64,000 nt of DNA from Chloroherpetonaceae bacterium (GTDB taxonomy: Bacteria > Bacteroidota > Chlorobiia > Chlorobiales > Thermochlorobacteraceae). Position 1 is the stretch's first letter. Every line of letters begins with the position of its first letter. Position numbers and translations under genes: made by a program. Positions 514-7,430 of the stretch are shown in pieces. The stretch covers positions 17,646-81,645 of the forward strand of contig JBDNCJ010000002.1 in the NCBI GenBank assembly GCA_046719715.1, written 5' to 3'. A model generated the notes under the pieces. The model worked only from the letters and a program-made list of their open reading frames with translations, was not told where the DNA came from and ran no database searches.

Positions 514-1287
514 TTATTGAATGTTGACGCTCACGCTTGAAACGGCTTCTCCAACGAGCACGGTTTCTTGATTGTTTGAAAACGTGTAGGTATAGCGCAA
601 GACAATGACAAACCCCGACCCTGCCGAAAGTCCGCTCAGTGCGCTTGACGGAAATGTCGTGCTTGACCCCGATGTGCCTTCTCTTGTAACGGTATTTCCA
701 CGCGAGTCGATGATGAAGACTTGCCAAGTTGTTCCACCAGAGCCGCCCGTCCATGAGACTTGGAAGTTGGCGTTCTTGTTCAGGTTCGCGCCCGTTGCAA
801 GATTGGAGATTGAAACTCGGCTCGGCACGCTGATGGTGTTCGTCGTTAAGTTGTAGCCTTGCACCGTAAATTGCGCGTTGCCTGTGTAGTTGATTCCGAT
901 TGAGGTTGCGCCCGGCGTGATGTTGGCAGGGTTCGGCACAAAGTAAAACGTGCTGCCGTCTTTGGTGAGCGTATGAGTTGTGTTATTCGCTACAACGCTC
1001 ACGCTGGTAGGTGAACCTTGATTAAAACGAGCAACCGCTTGCCCATAATCAATCTCTACATTTGGAATGCCCGGCACACCCGAACTGACCGAATACGCAC
1101 CGCGCACCGCCACTAAAACATTTTGAGGCGTTACACCGCCGAAGCTCGTCGGCACTTGGGGCAACGATGGCGTTCCGCTTCCGCTCCCCGACGGATTGTT
1201 CTCTTCCTTACACCCCGTTACGAGCATGCTCAAAAATATCACAAGAAGCGTCAGCACGAGAGATGTTTCTCTGAAATTTTTGTTCAT
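514..1287 (-). CDS. Hypothetical lipoprotein, beta-rich (Ig/FN3-like)
   Basis: 257-aa ORF; hydrophobic signal ending LVTG-C, followed by KEEN and a Gly/Ser/Pro linker. Confidence 0.75.
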   Translation of the reverse strand: MNKNFRETSLVLTLLVIFLSMLVTGCKEENNPSGSGSGTPSLPQVPTSFGGVTPQNVLVAVRGAYSVSSGVPGIPNVEIDYGQAVARFNQGSPTSVSVVANNTTHTLTKDGSTFYFVPNPANITPGATSIGINYTGNAQFTVQGYNLTTNTISVPSRVSISNLATGANLNKNANFQVSWTGGSGGTTWQVFIIDSRGNTVTREGTSGSSTTFPSSALSGLSAGSGFVIVLRYTYTFSNNQETVLVGEAVSSVSVNIQ

Positions 1288-1407
1288 TGTTGGAAAAAGT
1301 TTTAGTTGAAAAAGTTAATTGAATTGTTTGACGACTATCAGCAGTTGAGAGCCTCAAAAATCGAAAACTGTGCCAGTGCGATTTTCGCCGATTTACCGCA
1401 CTTTCAA

Positions 1408-1437
1408 ACAAAAAAGCGTCTCAATTGTGAGACGCTC
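1408..1437 (-). terminator. Rho-independent terminator after M1 peptidase gene
   Basis: Perfect stem AGCGTCTCA-ATTG-TGAGACGCT with a U-run on the minus strand. Confidence 0.75.
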
Positions 1438-1512
1438 TACTTAGGCTCTTGTCGCACCGTAGCGACAGGCTTATTGAACTGAATTCTTTGGTCGTCGAGG
1501 ATTACGGAACGC

Positions 1513-3621
1513 TTACGGGTTTTTGCCGTCCGCGCTCGATTCGGTTTTATCGGGCTGTTTGTATTTGGGGTCAAAGAGCTTGTTGTTCGCTAAATTCACA
1601 TCGGGCAGTTTTTTATCGGGATCTAATTCCACGCCGACAATTTTCTTTTCTGACCACACGGGCGCAATAAACTCATTACCTCGAAGCCAGATTTCAACGG
1701 GCAGTTTGCGTCGTTCCGTAGAGCCGTCTTCGTAGGTGATTTCCATTTCAACGGGCATGACCATCTCTTTGCGATTGACGAGGAAAATGCGGTTGTAGTA
1801 TTGGTCAAGCGAATCGAGCGTGTGGACGGAATCGACGGATTGGTCAAGTTGCGACGTCGTGTAGAACCAGCCGCGCCAAAACCACGCCAAGTCTTCGCCC
1901 GCTGCGTCGTCCATCGTTCTGAAAAAATCTTCCGGCGAAGGGTGTTTGTATTTCCAACGCCGAATGTATTCTTTGAACGCCGCATCGAAACGCTCTTCAC
2001 CCAAGACGACTTCGCGCAAGGCAACGAGTGCCGCCGCCGTTTTCGCATAAGCATTTTGACCGAGATTGCGAATCGCGTGTGGGTGCGTCATCAACGGTTG
2101 ATGCTCTTCGGAGCGCATATACGGCACAATGTCGCGCGCTTCGCCGCGTCGCGCCTTGCGTTCAGGATACTTTTCTTTTTCGCCGTAGTAGCAGATAAAC
2201 GAGTTCAACCCTTCATCGAGCCACGCATATCGTCGCTCATTATTCTGCACAATCATCGGAAACCACGTGTGCCCGACTTCGTGAAGCGTAACGGCAAAGA
2301 GCCGAAAATCGTTATACCGCTCCCGACAAAAAATCATCATCGGATATTCCATTCCGCCCGGCACCGAGCCATTGACGTTAATCATCGTGTTGTAGGGATA
2401 GGGAAACCATTTCTCGGAAAACTCTTTGAGCGAGAATCGAACATATTGCGTGGATTCTTTCCACATTTGTTGCCCTTCGACGGGGTAGAGCGATTGTGCC
2501 AAAATGCCGTTCCACTGCGCGGCGTCCCAAATGAAGGCGGCTGATGAGGCAAAGGCAAAATCGCGCACGTTGTCGGCTTTGTAGTGCCAGACAAGTTCGC
2601 CCGTTTGTTTCGGGCGTGTCCACGACGCGCCAACTTCATCGCGTCCGATAATCATGACTGTTTCATCGCTTTTAGCGGCTTTGGCTAATCGCTCGCGAAG
2701 CGTTGATGTTAAAACTTCATTCGGATTTTGAAGCGTGCCCGTCGCCAAACAAATGTGATTGGCTGGAACCGTGAGTTTCACATCAAACGAACCGTATTCG
2801 GTGTAGAACTCGCCTGCACCAAGATATTGGTCGGTGTTCCACCCCGAAAGGTCGTCATAAACGCACATTCTTGGATACCATTGCGCAATTTGATATACCC
2901 AGCCTTGCTTGCACTCTTCGCGTCCCATGCGACCTGTAAAGGGAATCGCAAACGACCACTCCATCTCGAGTTGCACCACGCCCCCATTTGGCACAAGTGG
3001 TTCGGGCAAGTCAATGCGCATCATCGTATCGTTGATTTTGAACTTGGCTTTCGATTTTGTCTTCTTTTGTGGCGCGCGTTTTCCTTTTTTGACGGGTTGC
3101 GTTTGCATTGTTATGACTTCGACATCAGTGATGTCCATTCCGCCATCAAATTCAGAAGAGCGGAAGAGCGACGGCTCGGTTGGGTCGTCGGCTTCTTTGA
3201 TAAGACGCGCACGCATTTTCGGATTGGACAGATTTTGGTCGAGCTGAACCCACACATAGTAAAGCGTATCGGGCGAGTTGTTGGTGTAGGTGATCGTTTC
3301 CATTCCAGACAGCACATGTTCAAGGGTGTCAATTTTTGCCGAAATGACATAGTCGGCGCGATTTTGCCAATACTGATGCGACGGCGCGCCCGACCCCGTT
3401 CGATACGGCGAAAGCACCCAATCGAATCGGCGAAACGTGGATTGATTTTCAAATGGCACACGTCTCCCCACAATTTGGATTGGCTCTATGACCGTGTCGG
3501 CAGAAAGTTCAAGGTTCATTTTATCCTCGTCCGTTGCCGTGTTGGACGACGCACATGCGGAAATAACTAAAAAGAAAAGAGCCATGCAGGCTTTTACAAG
3601 CCATTGAGATGTGATTTTCAT
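1513..3621 (-). CDS. M1 family zinc aminopeptidase, lipoprotein
   Basis: GGMEY exopeptidase motif, HEVGH...E (LDEG) zinc motif, lipobox ISA-C. Confidence 0.9.
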   Translation of the reverse strand: MKITSQWLVKACMALFFLVISACASSNTATDEDKMNLELSADTVIEPIQIVGRRVPFENQSTFRRFDWVLSPYRTGSGAPSHQYWQNRADYVISAKIDTLEHVLSGMETITYTNNSPDTLYYVWVQLDQNLSNPKMRARLIKEADDPTEPSLFRSSEFDGGMDITDVEVITMQTQPVKKGKRAPQKKTKSKAKFKINDTMMRIDLPEPLVPNGGVVQLEMEWSFAIPFTGRMGREECKQGWVYQIAQWYPRMCVYDDLSGWNTDQYLGAGEFYTEYGSFDVKLTVPANHICLATGTLQNPNEVLTSTLRERLAKAAKSDETVMIIGRDEVGASWTRPKQTGELVWHYKADNVRDFAFASSAAFIWDAAQWNGILAQSLYPVEGQQMWKESTQYVRFSLKEFSEKWFPYPYNTMINVNGSVPGGMEYPMMIFCRERYNDFRLFAVTLHEVGHTWFPMIVQNNERRYAWLDEGLNSFICYYGEKEKYPERKARRGEARDIVPYMRSEEHQPLMTHPHAIRNLGQNAYAKTAAALVALREVVLGEERFDAAFKEYIRRWKYKHPSPEDFFRTMDDAAGEDLAWFWRGWFYTTSQLDQSVDSVHTLDSLDQYYNRIFLVNRKEMVMPVEMEITYEDGSTERRKLPVEIWLRGNEFIAPVWSEKKIVGVELDPDKKLPDVNLANNKLFDPKYKQPDKTESSADGKNP

Positions 3622-3719
3622 GTAAGTGAATTTTGGAACACAAGAGATTGTTTTAATGAAACCAAAGTTATTGAAATTCGTGTGCTTTTTGTTAAGTTCG
3701 CTTCATCAAAATTGATGTT

Positions 3720-4094
3720 ATGCAAACACGCTTGCTCCATATTTTTCCGATTCTTTTTGCATTCGTGCTTTACACGATTCCGCTTTGCCAATGCGCGGAA
3801 ATGATAAAGGCAAAAGCGGCACCTTCGTGCTGTTCGGCATCAAGCCTAACGGAGTCAGGTGCGCATAAGGCTTGCACCGATGCCACAGAATGCTGCGCTG
3901 ACGGCATCAACGCGGAAAAAATGAAAACTGAAAAATCGTTTGAATCCGCACAAGTTTCGCTTTCTTCTCCTGCGCTGGTTTCAGTTATTGAGTTTCCTTC
4001 GCTTTTTGCTTCTACCCAATCGATTTCCTTTAACAACGCTTTCTCGGTACACTCTCCACCGACACAGGCTTTCTTGCAAGTGTTTTTGATTTAG
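3720..4094 (+). CDS. Cys-rich exported/leader protein with C-terminal SPP motif (DUF2946/HYC_CC_PP-like)
   Basis: 124 aa; N-terminal hydrophobic segment, CQC, CC and CC motifs, ends HSPPTQAFLQVFLI; first gene of a metal-related cluster. Confidence 0.65.
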   Translation: MQTRLLHIFPILFAFVLYTIPLCQCAEMIKAKAAPSCCSASSLTESGAHKACTDATECCADGINAEKMKTEKSFESAQVSLSSPALVSVIEFPSLFASTQSISFNNAFSVHSPPTQAFLQVFLI

Positions 4095-4162
4095 GATTTA
4101 CGGTGTTCTTTCGCTTGTCTGCGCATTGATTTTGAACATCGTAATTCTAAACTCAAACACTT
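4078..4162 (+). promoter_or_regulatory. Long mRNA hairpin linking the end of the leader ORF to the initiation region of the next gene
   Basis: AAGTGTTTTTGATTTAGGATTTACGGTGTTC (4078-4108) pairs, with bulges and wobbles, with GAACATCGTAATTCTAAACTCAAACACTT (4134-4162); the next ATG is at 4170. Confidence 0.6.
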
Positions 4163-4169
4163 TTTCATC

Positions 4170-4343
4170 ATGAAATCCATCATTCTTTTTTCGGCGATTT
4201 TATTCACGTTCAGTTTTGCACCGCAAAAGTCGGAAGTTTCCGAAGCCAAATCGTGCTGTGTGAATGCGTGTTGCACCACCTGCACATGCGGCGAGTGCAC
4301 CTCTTGTGCTACTTGCGCCGAGTGCACTTCGTGCTGTGAATAA
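4170..4343 (+). CDS. Small signal-peptide-bearing Cys-rich (metallothionein-like) peptide, absent from the ORF track
   Basis: Manual translation: MKSIILFSAILFTFSFAPQKSEVSEAKSCCVNACCTTCTCGECTSCATCAECTSCCE*; 57 aa, 12 Cys in residues 29-56. Confidence 0.8.
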   Translation: MKSIILFSAILFTFSFAPQKSEVSEAKSCCVNACCTTCTCGECTSCATCAECTSCCE

Positions 4344-4380
4344 TTCATTTTGAATTTTTCGCGCTGAACTTTATTTCTGC

Positions 4381-4412
4381 GAAAGCCTGTTTCCGAAGCG
4401 AAGCAGGCTTTC
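4381..4412 (+). terminator. Intergenic stem-loop (terminator or mRNA-stabilising hairpin)
   Basis: GAAAGCCTGTTTC-CGAAGC-GAAGCAGGCTTTC between the Cys peptide and YHS genes. Confidence 0.55.
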
Positions 4413-4431
4413 ACTTTAACTCAATCCAAAT

Positions 4432-4716
4432 ATGAAAACGCTTTCCATTTTATCATTGATGATTATCGTTTCACTTTCGGCTTGCCAGAAGAGCGAGCCA
4501 AAGCAAGAAGTTGCAAAACCCATGTTTAACGAAGTGTGTCCGATTTCAGGCGAACCCGTAAGCGCGAAGTCAAAAACGGTTGAACACGAGGGTAAAGTGT
4601 ATGGCTTTTGTTGCAACAGTTGCGAGCCGAAGTTCAAAGCCGACCCCGCCAAGTATTCTGCGAAGGTTAGTGCCGACGGCAAAGCCTTTCTCGGCGAAAA
4701 AGAACCTATGCACTAA
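4432..4716 (+). CDS. YHS-domain lipoprotein (metal-binding)
   Basis: Lipobox LSA-C; CPISG...YGFCCNSC...F..DP.KY YHS/TRASH pattern. Confidence 0.85.
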   Translation: MKTLSILSLMIIVSLSACQKSEPKQEVAKPMFNEVCPISGEPVSAKSKTVEHEGKVYGFCCNSCEPKFKADPAKYSAKVSADGKAFLGEKEPMH

Positions 4717-4730
4717 GTTTCCAAAAATAA

Positions 4731-5507
4731 ATGCTGATGATGACTGAACCCTTATCTCAAACGATTACAGAGTTTGCAGTCAGCGGCATGCACTGTCAAG
4801 GGTGTGTTCAATCGGTTGAATCGGCTCTTTCATCAGTGGAAGGGGTTGAATCGGTAAAGGTTTCACTGTTTCCAGCGAAAGCGGTGCTGGTGCTTAAAGG
4901 TGATGTGCCGCTCTCGACACTCAATCGTGCGTTGAAATCCGTCGGCGATTACACGCTTTCGGAGTGGAAAGGCGATGCCGATTCTGCTTTGCCTTTTTCG
5001 CTTCCTGTTGTCAGTGCGCCGATGACTTCATCGGTTGCGCCAACTTCAAACGCCCCCCGTTCAAAAGCGTTTTGGCTTGATGCGCCGAAGTGGAAACGCG
5101 CCTCGTTTAACACGCTCAACTGCTTGATTGGCTGCTCGATTGGCGATTTTGGATTTATCATTTATGCGCAAAGTGTCGGCTTGGCGTGGTCAATGTGGGC
5201 GATTATGGGCGTCGCGATTCTGTGCGGACTGACGACTTCCGTCATGCTTGAAACCGTGATTCTCAAAGTGCGAGAAGGTTTTTCTTGGTCGCTTGCCTTG
5301 CAGACGGCTTTCTCAATGAGTTTCCTCTCGATGCTTGCGATGGAAATTTCCGAAAATGCAACAGATTACTTGCTCACGGGCGGAACCGTCATGCCGCACG
5401 AGCCTTTCTATTGGATTGCATTGGGAATCGCCCTCATCGCAGGATTCCTTGTGCCGCTTCCCTACAATTATTGGAAACTCAAAAAATTCAACAAGTCTTG
5501 CCACTGA
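4731..5507 (+). CDS. HMA (CopZ-like) domain fused to DUF4396-like membrane domain
   Basis: GMHCQGC heavy-metal-binding motif; TLNCLIGCSIGD and Met-rich TM helices (MSFLSMLAMEI). Confidence 0.85.
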   Translation: MLMMTEPLSQTITEFAVSGMHCQGCVQSVESALSSVEGVESVKVSLFPAKAVLVLKGDVPLSTLNRALKSVGDYTLSEWKGDADSALPFSLPVVSAPMTSSVAPTSNAPRSKAFWLDAPKWKRASFNTLNCLIGCSIGDFGFIIYAQSVGLAWSMWAIMGVAILCGLTTSVMLETVILKVREGFSWSLALQTAFSMSFLSMLAMEISENATDYLLTGGTVMPHEPFYWIALGIALIAGFLVPLPYNYWKLKKFNKSCH

Positions 5508-5733
5508 TGTTCCAGCCATACTTCCGACCGCGCCATTCAGAATGTGAACAGTTATTCTTTTGAATACAGCAAAGCGCATTGATTACTGAAGCCCGATAAT
5601 ACCTTCGCAAAATTTGCGACGCCAAAAGCCGAAACAGCCGATTTCCCCTGTAACGCCTTATTTCATCAGCACTTAAAATTAACGAAAAAAAAATCGAGCG
5701 TCGATTTTCCTTGCATCGCCTAAACGCCCGCCG

Positions 5734-5741
5734 TAACTTTG
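5734..5741 (+). promoter_or_regulatory. Putative -7 promoter element (TAnnTTTG)
   Basis: TAACTTTG with TTG 20 nt upstream, ahead of the 5827 gene. Confidence 0.4.
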
Positions 5742-5826
5742 TTGCGAACTTTGTTCCTTACCAATTTTCAAAAACAAAAGACCCGTTTTCCCACAACGAG
5801 AAAACGCGCCCGAAACAAAATGAAGT

Positions 5827-7245
5827 ATGAAGTATTCTTTTTCCATCACGCGCTTACCTTTCGCACTCTTGCTCCTGCTCACTCTCCACAGTTGCAAAGA
5901 GAACCCGATGAGGTCTATAGAACCTTCGTCTTCAGTTTCCCTCTCTGTTATCTCTGTGTTATCCAACGAGGTATGGCTGAAACTCTCATTCGCGGATAGT
6001 TTAGAGCAACCGCGCGATTTTAGGATTTTGAGAAACGACTCGATTCTCATTCGTGGGTCGCTCTTTAGCAAAGACACGTTGATTGCCGACCGTGCGTTTT
6101 CATCGCCGATATTTCAAGATGGAACGTCGATTCGCCCCAACCGCGACTATACTTTTTCAGCGGTGCGCCTCAATGAACAAACCGGCGTGATTCTCGATAG
6201 CAGCAAAACGCTCCGCACCCGAACCTTGGACACCACCAGCCATGATTATACATGGACAACCACCGCGCTCGGTGAAGGGTCAAGCATCTTGAGAGACGTG
6301 GCGATTGTTAGTGATACATGTGCATACGTTGTTGGACAAATGTTTTTTCGGGATTCCACAGGACAGATAAATCGGGATAAACCCTTTTGTTTCGCAACGT
6401 GGGATGGGCGCCAATGGAGAACATCTCAACTCAGAATATCTGATGGAACTAACACATCAATCGTTCCAGAGTTCAGAGGAATTTTTGCTTTTAGCCCTAC
6501 TGATGTTTGGGTTGCGGCTGTTGGCGTGTGGCGGGTTAATCCGACTACAGGACAAACGCAATCATTTAATGAACTATTGCGATTTAATCCTGCGTTTATC
6601 CTATCTCCTGAACAAAGCATTGAAAAACTTTGGGGAACGGCTCCAAATAATATCTATGGTGTAGGGTTAAAAGGGGCAATCGTTCATTACAACGGTCAGC
6701 GTTGGCAACGCATGGAAAGCGGGACGACGATTGACTTGCGAGATATTTACGGTACACCAGACGGGAAAGAAGTTTGGGCGGTCGGGCATGAAGGCGCGTT
6801 ACCTTTTGGTGTTGTTCTTCGTCTGGAAAATGGACGGTGGGTCAAGAAATTTGATACGTCTTTTCCCAACTATCCCGACGCCGAATTTGCTCAAGCGATT
6901 TGGATGGATAACCATCGCGCCATCTTTTCTAACAGCCGTGCAGTTTGGCAATCACTCGTTTACCCTATCAACAAATTCCCCGGCGCCTATCTCGACGATA
7001 ATAATTTTATAAACAACATCCGCTCGTTGCGCGGCTCTGCGCATAATGATATCACAGCCGTTGGCGACTTTAGTTCGATATGGCATTGGAACGGTTACAA
7101 CTGGCGTTTTTATTCCCAACTTCAACGCGAAAACGATCTTTACCTAGACGTGGCAGTAACCAGCCGTGTTATCGTATCTGTTGGAATACGAAGACTTCCT
7201 TCTTTTAGAAGCGAGGGCTTGATAACCATCGGGCGAAAACCCTAA
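5827..7245 (+). CDS. Hypothetical lipoprotein with beta-propeller-like repeats
   Basis: Lipobox LHS-C-KEN; repeats of the type LWGT..NNIY.VG..G.I.HYNG..W. Confidence 0.75.
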   Translation: MKYSFSITRLPFALLLLLTLHSCKENPMRSIEPSSSVSLSVISVLSNEVWLKLSFADSLEQPRDFRILRNDSILIRGSLFSKDTLIADRAFSSPIFQDGTSIRPNRDYTFSAVRLNEQTGVILDSSKTLRTRTLDTTSHDYTWTTTALGEGSSILRDVAIVSDTCAYVVGQMFFRDSTGQINRDKPFCFATWDGRQWRTSQLRISDGTNTSIVPEFRGIFAFSPTDVWVAAVGVWRVNPTTGQTQSFNELLRFNPAFILSPEQSIEKLWGTAPNNIYGVGLKGAIVHYNGQRWQRMESGTTIDLRDIYGTPDGKEVWAVGHEGALPFGVVLRLENGRWVKKFDTSFPNYPDAEFAQAIWMDNHRAIFSNSRAVWQSLVYPINKFPGAYLDDNNFINNIRSLRGSAHNDITAVGDFSSIWHWNGYNWRFYSQLQRENDLYLDVAVTSRVIVSVGIRRLPSFRSEGLITIGRKP

Positions 7246-7430
7246 CTCAAAAGGAAGTGTGTTTATGACATGAGTAAGAATAAAGAAGCAAGGATTTGGT
7301 TGCCGCCAAACCCTTGCCAAAACACAAACGAAAGCCGTGTGTTTACACAGTCGCATAGTGATGCGAGACGTCATGCTTTTTGTTTGCCGAAAAAGATACC
7401 ATGATTTCTAACAACAAAATGTCTACTCCA

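Follow-up and report, generated by a model that had tools for sequence, protein, structure and literature searches.

A genus-restricted, cysteine-rich peptide gene under purifying selection in a candidate metal-handling cluster of hot-spring Chloroherpetonaceae

In this study, we describe a 57-residue, cysteine (Cys)-rich peptide encoded at positions 4170..4343 (+ strand) of the window, a 64,000-nucleotide (nt) stretch of contig JBDNCJ010000002.1 from a Chloroherpetonaceae bacterium. The peptide gene is real, conserved and under purifying selection, and its Cys residues are the selected feature. By the genome searches reported here, its distribution is limited to a single genus of Chloroherpetonaceae / 'Ca. 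Thermochlorobacteriaceae', hot-spring relatives of the green sulfur bacteria. The function that we propose, and which we regard as evenly balanced between right and wrong, is that of an envelope-facing, high-capacity thiolate peptide that would buffer or relay a soft metal, probably Cu(I).

The gene begins with an ATG at 4170 and ends with a TAA stop codon at 4341-4343; on re-reading, its open reading frame (ORF), its length of 57 amino acids and its sequence matched exactly those given in an earlier reading of this DNA, referred to below as the original prediction. Cys residues lie at positions 29, 30, 34, 35, 38, 40, 43, 46, 49, 52, 55 and 56 (n = 12), which bears out the 12 Cys in 28 residues, with CC, CxC and CxxC spacing, that had been claimed. 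They fall in an acidic tail, residues 29-57 (4254..4340, +), with the pattern CC-x3-CC-x2-C-x-C-x2-C-x2-C-x2-C-x2-C-x2-CC-E, which we presume, from Cys conservation and the ratio of nonsynonymous to synonymous substitution rates (dN/dS), to be a metal-thiolate domain. The Cys-rich part is 41% Cys in CC, CxC and CxxC motifs. The 29-residue tail holds three acidic residues and no His, Lys, Arg or aromatic residue (F/W/Y), so the reported lack of His and aromatics holds for the Cys-rich part of the peptide; among orthologs, only the divergent one has a His in the tail. Across the whole 3.27-Mb genome, no other of the 26,303 six-frame ORFs of at least 40 amino acids reaches 12 Cys per 28-residue window, and the runner-up, apparently a chance ORF, has nine. 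The internal duplication described in the original prediction did not hold up. It comes down to an 11-nt repeat, identical at 10/11 positions (4293-4303 and 4320-4330, 27 nt apart), that is not better kept at the DNA level in orthologs and that reads as a recurring (E/D)-C-x-S-C motif with no sign of recent duplication. The exact 57-residue protein is present in two public protein collections, and therefore at least one gene caller has predicted the gene.

That the gene is functional is supported by its conservation. Orthologs were sought by six-frame search of the window's genome and 40 related genomes, five from the same genus and 35 from outside it. Four of the five other same-genus genomes carry one (E-values of 2e-25 to 7e-23 at 81-84% identity, and 3e-8 at 49%); the fifth, which is 81% complete, gave a chance-level match only, and a metagenome scan added seven further ortholog-bearing contigs. 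Among four close genomes, pairwise dN/dS of the peptide gene is 0.14-0.22 at a synonymous divergence (dS) of 0.18-0.72, which lies within the range of the flanking genes in the same pairs (0.05-0.46). Over seven full-length sequences (21 pairs), mean dN/dS is 0.178 in the coding frame, lower than in any of its five alternatives (0.33-2.5), and 15, 9 and 34 variable columns fall at codon positions 1, 2 and 3, respectively. Constraint is tighter in the Cys-rich tail (dN/dS of 0.13) than in the N-terminal part (0.35). In an alignment of 10 distinct sequences, ten Cys and one Ser of the tail are invariant in all 10 and the first CC pair is present in seven, and the positions between Cys vary (T/A/V/I, G/D, E/D, A/P). 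The ten Cys are retained across a dS of up to ~1 or more in comparison with genome G005. Cys conservation with low dN/dS, and a frame kept in relatives, had both been proposed as checks on the original prediction, and both came out in favor of the gene. A long antisense ORF at 4091-4414 is best regarded as a by-product of the Cys codons, which give no stop on the reverse strand.

The same searches set the limits of the family. The 35 genomes outside the genus yielded no relative better than E 0.02, and both a word-indexed search of 5.8 billion proteins and a HMMER scan of 1.84 billion protein representatives with a five-member family profile returned the self-match only. A DNA pattern built on the Cys spacing matched in 77 of 401 genomes of the phylum, nearly all of the listed matches being trinucleotide-like repeats, and within the window's family it matched in same-genus genomes alone. 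Two odd matches (L082 = G149:C19 and L083 = G233:C11) proved to be 9-nt tandem repeats, reading as (CCE)n/(CCP)n in one frame, that are not gene-like and are unrelated to the peptide. In the sister genus (genome G008), the HYC-like and YHS genes, homologs of the two genes that flank the peptide gene, are separated by ~30 nt that hold no peptide gene. This gap, together with the want of any match outside the genus, suggests that the gene is a genus-level novelty, either inserted into the spacer or born there.

The length of the peptide gene is naturally polymorphic within one population-level lineage, as seen in four metagenome contigs. Two of the alleles match a full-length one (L057:101-277) letter for letter apart from in-frame deletions of 45 nt (L058:1630-1761, 43 amino acids) and 51 nt (L059:2148-2273, also L060; 41 amino acids). 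Both deletions remove the linker that precedes the tail, the two candidate cleavage sites considered below and the first CC pair; these alleles could simply be defective. That deletion alleles segregate in natural populations would be expected of an ORF that appeared recently in the intergenic spacer and is non-functional or dispensable, as would a distribution limited to one genus, the lack of a relative among 1.84 billion representatives and the ~30 nt that separate the flanking genes in the sister genus. Such an ORF would not be expected to have a dN/dS of 0.18, an excess of third-position changes and ten Cys kept over long divergence, or to suffer two independent deletions that are both in frame, and we consider this explanation scarcely probable.

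Preceding the tail are a hydrophobic N-terminus and a polar linker. Residues 1-17 (4170..4220, +), MK followed by 14 hydrophobic residues ending in SFA, have the character of a Sec-type signal or signal-anchor: K2 is followed by 14-15 hydrophobic residues, and the Kyte-Doolittle hydropathy peaks at 2.19 over residues 1-19. When 104,588 candidate starts in the genome were compared in register, the best look-alikes of this N-terminus were apparent signal peptides ending SFA/QE, TLA/QK or xxA/Q, where the slash marks the presumed cut. The Sec-type N-terminus of the original prediction is thus supported by hydropathy and by signal-peptide-like look-alikes. We also considered whether the segment derived from a duplicated signal peptide of the neighboring YHS lipoprotein. 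The two align in register and share QKSE, but the lipoprotein ranked only about 10th of the 104,588, no better than unrelated proteins, and this origin was rejected. There is no lipobox with a Cys at +1 in the peptide, whose first Cys is residue 29. The linker, PQKSEVSEAKS (residues 18-28; 4221..4253, +), is delimited by alignment and is mostly deleted in the two natural alleles described above. It contains a second candidate cleavage site, SEA/K, which reads SEA/Q or SDA/Q in two orthologs. In this genome, by a crude regular-expression count of 381 signal-peptide-like N-termini, Gln is what most often follows the first candidate x-A (51/381), and an 'A-P' usually precedes a later A/Q site; cleavage at SEA/K is therefore possible. 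The A/Q ends resemble the 'Q-rule' of Bacteroidetes, which, according to its describers, does not extend to the whole FCB group (PMC5837995).

If the tail is exported, its redox state becomes important. Searches of the 99.84% complete genome for DSBA, Thioredoxin_4, DsbB and VKOR found no match, with positive controls detected for all four families, and a DsbD-type membrane domain (DsbD_TM) is present. Given this complement, exported thiols could stay reduced. The same result bears on the possibility that the product is a disulfide-rich exported peptide with a non-metal role (antimicrobial, signaling or structural) and up to six disulfides. Small size, presumed export and an even Cys count (12, and 10 and 14 in variants) would suit such a role, as would a habitat in oxic mats, where thiols can oxidize spontaneously, and a conserved hairpin 3' of the gene that would be in keeping with high expression of a small structural product. 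Beyond the undetected oxidases, the conserved cluster contains no immunity, ABC-export or processing genes, all of its conserved neighbors are metal-related, and a CxxC every three residues would be poor geometry for a knotted disulfide fold. We consider a disulfide-rich peptide unlikely.

The gene neighborhood provides the metal context. Upstream, at 3720..4094 (+), is a 124-residue gene that hhalign and synteny suggest to be a distant HYC_CC_PP relative. Its product has an N-terminal hydrophobic anchor, the Cys motifs C-x-C, CC and CC, and a C-terminal PP...FLQVFLI. Against NF047658 it scores E 0.039 and 14.4 bits, under the 28-bit cut-off; by hhalign, an alignment of five members of the upstream gene matches eight true HYC_CC_PP members (93.4% probability, E 2.5e-7); the CC and PP motifs and the FLI at the C-terminus fall in register, and L-C-Q-C stands in place of H-Y-C. 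Downstream, at 4432..4716 (+), a 94-residue YHS/TRASH lipoprotein with the lipobox LSAC is encoded (Pfam PF04945, E 1.5e-7, 31.7 bits, over the cut-off), followed at 4731..5507 (+) by a 258-residue HMA-DUF4396 membrane protein (Pfam HMA, 3.9e-13; DUF4396, 2.2e-40). In the latter, a linker joins an N-terminal cytoplasmic-type HMA domain (GMHCQGC) to a DUF4396 domain of four helices, the first of which bears an invariant CxxxC; the domain also carries a C-terminal Cys-His. Its AlphaFold2 (AF2) model has a mean predicted local distance difference test score (pLDDT) of 77.5, with helices within 118-252. The HMA domain matches MerP and CopZ-type folds at Z 7-12; Foldseek and VIA-align returned matches to the HMA domain only, the helical domain reaching at most Z 6.9, a value that carries no weight among helix bundles.

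All loci of sufficient length share the order HYC-like, peptide, YHS lipoprotein, with HMA-DUF4396 next wherever the sequence reaches it. In genome G002, an extra 74-residue GDCCVxC-domain gene (NF041374, E 5e-29; L005:887-1111, -) lies between YHS and HMA-DUF4396. The sister-genus locus (L020) has the order HYC-like, YHS, a fusion of HMA to a MauE/DoxX-type domain instead of DUF4396, and a CusA/CzcA pump gene, the last of these family-tested on a 99-residue fragment (TIGR00914, E 4e-31). Of the 301 phylum genomes sampled, 81 encode HYC_CC_PP, and in 7/8 inspected loci the next gene resembles a CusA/CzcA-type resistance-nodulation-division (RND) pump, as judged by eye from the N-terminus, with the family test made in L020 alone. 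This suggests an accessory role for the uncharacterized HYC_CC_PP proteins at heavy-metal RND pumps in Bacteroidota. DUF4396 is rare in the phylum (9/251 genomes); it occurs in two other genera of the family without the other three cluster genes, and it adjoins a P-type ATPase or multicopper oxidase gene in 2/3 non-Chlorobiales loci. The window's genome has a single full CusA/CzcA gene, located elsewhere behind ORFs that look like adaptor and outer-membrane genes, with no HYC-like gene. A mercury system is disfavored, since no MerA scored above the cut-off in the genome. Taken together, the neighbors and related loci point to a soft-metal context, most likely copper, and a conserved metal-handling cluster of YHS, HMA-DUF4396 and HYC_CC_PP-related proteins supports the metal reading of the original prediction. 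The peptide itself does not appear to be a general partner of either family. No small ORF with at least six Cys per 28 residues was found within ~1.5 kb in any of 31 loci (30 HYC_CC_PP loci and L020), nor was a comparable Cys-rich ORF found at six further DUF4396 loci, and we rejected such a partnership.

The fusion in the sister genus raises the possibility that the peptide is a periplasmic thiol/redox agent, such as a sacrificial thiol buffer, a carrier of persulfide or polysulfide, or a substrate or partner of a thiol-redox protein in the membrane. In favor are the link of MauE/DoxX domains to thiol redox, a DsbD-type reductase domain in the genome and the high thiol density of the tail. 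Set against this, the cluster contains no sulfur-metabolism gene, and HMA, YHS and GDCCVxC, along with CusA/CzcA, P-type ATPase and multicopper oxidase neighbors in related loci, point to metals. A thiol/redox role and metal binding are inseparable by sequence; on this balance, we hold the former to be distinctly unlikely.

Another possibility is that the gene encodes the precursor of a ribosomally synthesized and post-translationally modified peptide (RiPP), of lanthipeptide, thiazole-containing or sactipeptide/ranthipeptide-like type, with the N-terminus as leader and the Cys/Ser/Thr part as core. Cores rich in Cys, Ser and Thr and hairpins are typical of RiPP precursors; here, Cys, Thr and Ser abound in the putative core, there is a hairpin 3' of the small gene, and genes for M1 and M12B peptidases are no more than 4 kb away. 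YcaO (PF02624), however, is absent from the genome, with a positive control in five genomes, and none of the nine ORFs scanned from 514 to 11260 matched a maturase family; LanC-like (PF05147) also had no match in the genome, although its positive control was silent as well. Ser and Thr are unconserved, as seen in the T/A/V/I swaps and in counts of 2-8 Ser/Thr against 10-14 Cys across variants, and the most divergent ortholog, at 71 amino acids, has 14 Cys and only two Ser/Thr. What would serve as the 'leader' is hydrophobic and of Sec type, metal proteins make up the conserved partners, and in genome G005 the M1 peptidase gene is not adjacent. A RiPP precursor is therefore very unlikely. As for the surroundings of the cluster, the M12B gene (7380-9791, +) encodes an 803-residue secreted reprolysin-like metallopeptidase, a 462-residue ORF at 9872-11260 (+) is transposase-like by eye and has no Pfam match, and a tRNA gene lies at 16000-16073 (-).

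Between the peptide and YHS genes is a conserved 13-bp stem-loop (4381..4412, +; -23.4 kcal/mol, z -3.18) that begins 37 nt past the peptide stop codon and was identified by fold energy and conservation. It is kept in 5/5 genomes, with one pair changed on both sides. It has no T-run and was not called by a terminator scan, and a promoter/terminator consensus scan found nothing on the + strand adjoining the peptide gene. The stem-loop may be a partial terminator or a stabilizer of the mRNA that raises the peptide message over that of its neighbors. Upstream, TTGATT and TAAACT are separated by a 16-nt spacer at 4126-4153 (+), 16 nt before the ATG, and are conserved in 3/5 genomes; they may be the gene's own promoter, although the consensus scan did not call them. 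A regulatory leader, in which 12 Cys codons would sense Cys-tRNA and the hairpin would tune transcription of YHS and HMA-DUF4396, would show the same arrangement: a short ORF crowded with codons of one family, then a conserved stem-loop and then downstream genes. The distance of the hairpin from the stop codon, the want of a T-run and of any predicted alternative antiterminator pairing, and downstream genes that are not for Cys biosynthesis all argue otherwise, as does purifying selection on the signal-peptide part and on residues other than Cys. We consider a leader ORF highly improbable.

We return, then, to an envelope thiolate peptide. We infer its export, topology, processing, reduced thiols, metal binding, metal identity and partners from sequence. 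In the model that we propose, the Sec-type segment would bring the acidic, 29-residue, 12-Cys tail to the outer face of the cytoplasmic membrane, where the peptide would either be freed by cleavage near residue 26/27 or remain tethered, with the Pro at +1 blocking the SFA site. Its thiols would stay reduced, there being no detectable DsbA/DsbB/VKOR oxidase and a DsbD-type reductase domain being present, and would gather several ions of a soft metal, most likely Cu(I), into thiolate clusters. The peptide could then buffer or relay the metal among the HMA-DUF4396 protein, the YHS lipoprotein and the HYC_CC_PP-like protein.

Several observations weigh against this model. Searches of Pfam, NCBIfam, PDB and 1.84 billion representatives found no resemblance, by sequence or by profile, to any family of metallothioneins (SmtA/BmtA, MymT or eukaryotic) or of copper-storage proteins; for the peptide, Pfam and NCBIfam had no match with an E-value of 0.1 or less, a profile search of PDB returned a single unrelated match at E 2, and the best score in the ESM Atlas, 0.77, is below the useful range. 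The AF2 model of the peptide has a mean pLDDT of 57.4 and no confident fold, with a helix at residues 3-16 at low confidence; we list it here, although a structure of such low confidence speaks neither for the proposed function nor contrary to it. The evidence from conservation is shallow in evolutionary depth, since the family is known from one genus and the dS of close pairs is 0.18-0.72. Cu(I) is probably the metal, by context, and the sequence alone cannot name it; moreover, the cluster includes no regulator. Undetected Dsb families are no proof of a reducing periplasm, and these organisms live in oxic mats. As to processing, a Pro at +1 blocks signal peptidase I, and the Pro at +1 of the SFA site is invariant among orthologs. 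The alternative SEA/K site lies nine residues past the hydrophobic core, with charged residues between, and the two deletion alleles have neither site.

If those alleles are functional, the hydrophobic segment would be retained and the tail would be tethered to the membrane. Together with the invariant Pro after SFA, they raise the possibility that the peptide remains membrane-anchored rather than periplasmic or secreted. A more specific version of the model, in which the peptide is never cleaved, tethered tails next to DUF4396 gather, on the periplasmic side, round a core of Cu(I)-thiolate, and the gene was newly born in the spacer, is one that we regard as tentative, a minority possibility.

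How does such a peptide compare with known systems? Bacterial metallothioneins are rare. In the portion of a review drawn on here, metallothioneins are small, Cys-rich proteins, a description that the composition of the peptide fits, and SmtA and MymT are placed among cytosolic copper-binding proteins, MymT having first been a small non-annotated ORF (PMC7558416). The same portion describes the Csp1-type proteins, Tat-exported, four-helix-bundle, Cys-rich Cu(I) stores of Gram-negative bacteria that are much larger than the peptide and are the only exported Cys-rich metal stores described there, as well as CopG, a periplasmic protein whose CxCC binds a tetranuclear Cu cluster (PMC7558416). The premise of the original prediction, that characterized bacterial metallothioneins are cytoplasmic, therefore holds for SmtA and MymT and omits the exported, Cys-rich Csp1 (PMC7558416). 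Like SmtA/BmtA and MymT, the peptide is small and Cys-rich, and those proteins hold several metal ions in thiolate clusters; they are, however, cytosolic and without an export signal, SmtA has a zinc-finger fold, and none has sequence similarity to the peptide, which has a Sec-type N-terminus and lies in an envelope gene cluster. Csp1 shares with the peptide its Cys-richness and export, the latter predicted in the peptide's case, but it is a pre-folded four-helix bundle that forms tetramers, binds 13 Cu(I) and uses the Tat pathway. Csp proteins have ~120 residues, and Cys line the core of their bundle. At 57 residues, with no RR motif in its N-terminus, no family match and a low-confidence AF2 model, the peptide does not resemble a Csp. 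MerP/MerT, CusF/CusCBA and CopG offer a parallel in setting, as small envelope proteins that work next to a membrane transporter and hold Cu(I), Ag(I) or Hg(II) or pass it on, yet MerP, CusF and CopG are folded domains with one site or cluster, whereas the peptide has a 29-residue, 12-Cys tail with no recognizable domain. In SCIFF-type, Cys-rich RiPP precursors, which are short peptides, many Cys are crowded into a small core at the C-terminus. The peptide is like them in size and in its C-terminal Cys core and differs in its Sec-type N-terminus, its unconserved Ser/Thr and the lack of a nearby maturase and of YcaO in the genome.

It follows that the term metallothionein applies to the peptide by composition (small size, abundant Cys in CC, CxC and CxxC, no aromatics in the tail) and by functional analogy, and not by sequence relation to any metallothionein family. 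Of the overall interpretation in the original prediction, the real and selected gene, the Sec-type N-terminus and the metal-handling gene cluster stand, and the label metallothionein-like holds as a functional analogy only. A full-text literature search for the phrase 'periplasmic metallothionein' returned no paper in the collection searched, although reports worded differently or published elsewhere are possible. Given the metal-handling genes around it, the gene probably encodes a metal-binding peptide of the envelope, and one of a type so far undescribed among bacteria.

Altogether, the peptide gene is a clean case of a genus-restricted orphan micro-gene under purifying selection, of the sort that annotation easily misses. 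If the proposed function is correct, a Sec-targeted peptide with 12 Cys in ~30 residues would represent a new mode of extracytoplasmic soft-metal buffering or relay, and its cluster would provide the first functional handle on three neighbors about which little is understood, DUF4396, the HYC_CC_PP family and the YHS lipoproteins. If its tails are tethered, they would form a membrane-bound mini copper store or relay without counterpart among known bacterial metal proteins, and an origin in the spacer would mean that a new, functional metal-binding gene was born in place.

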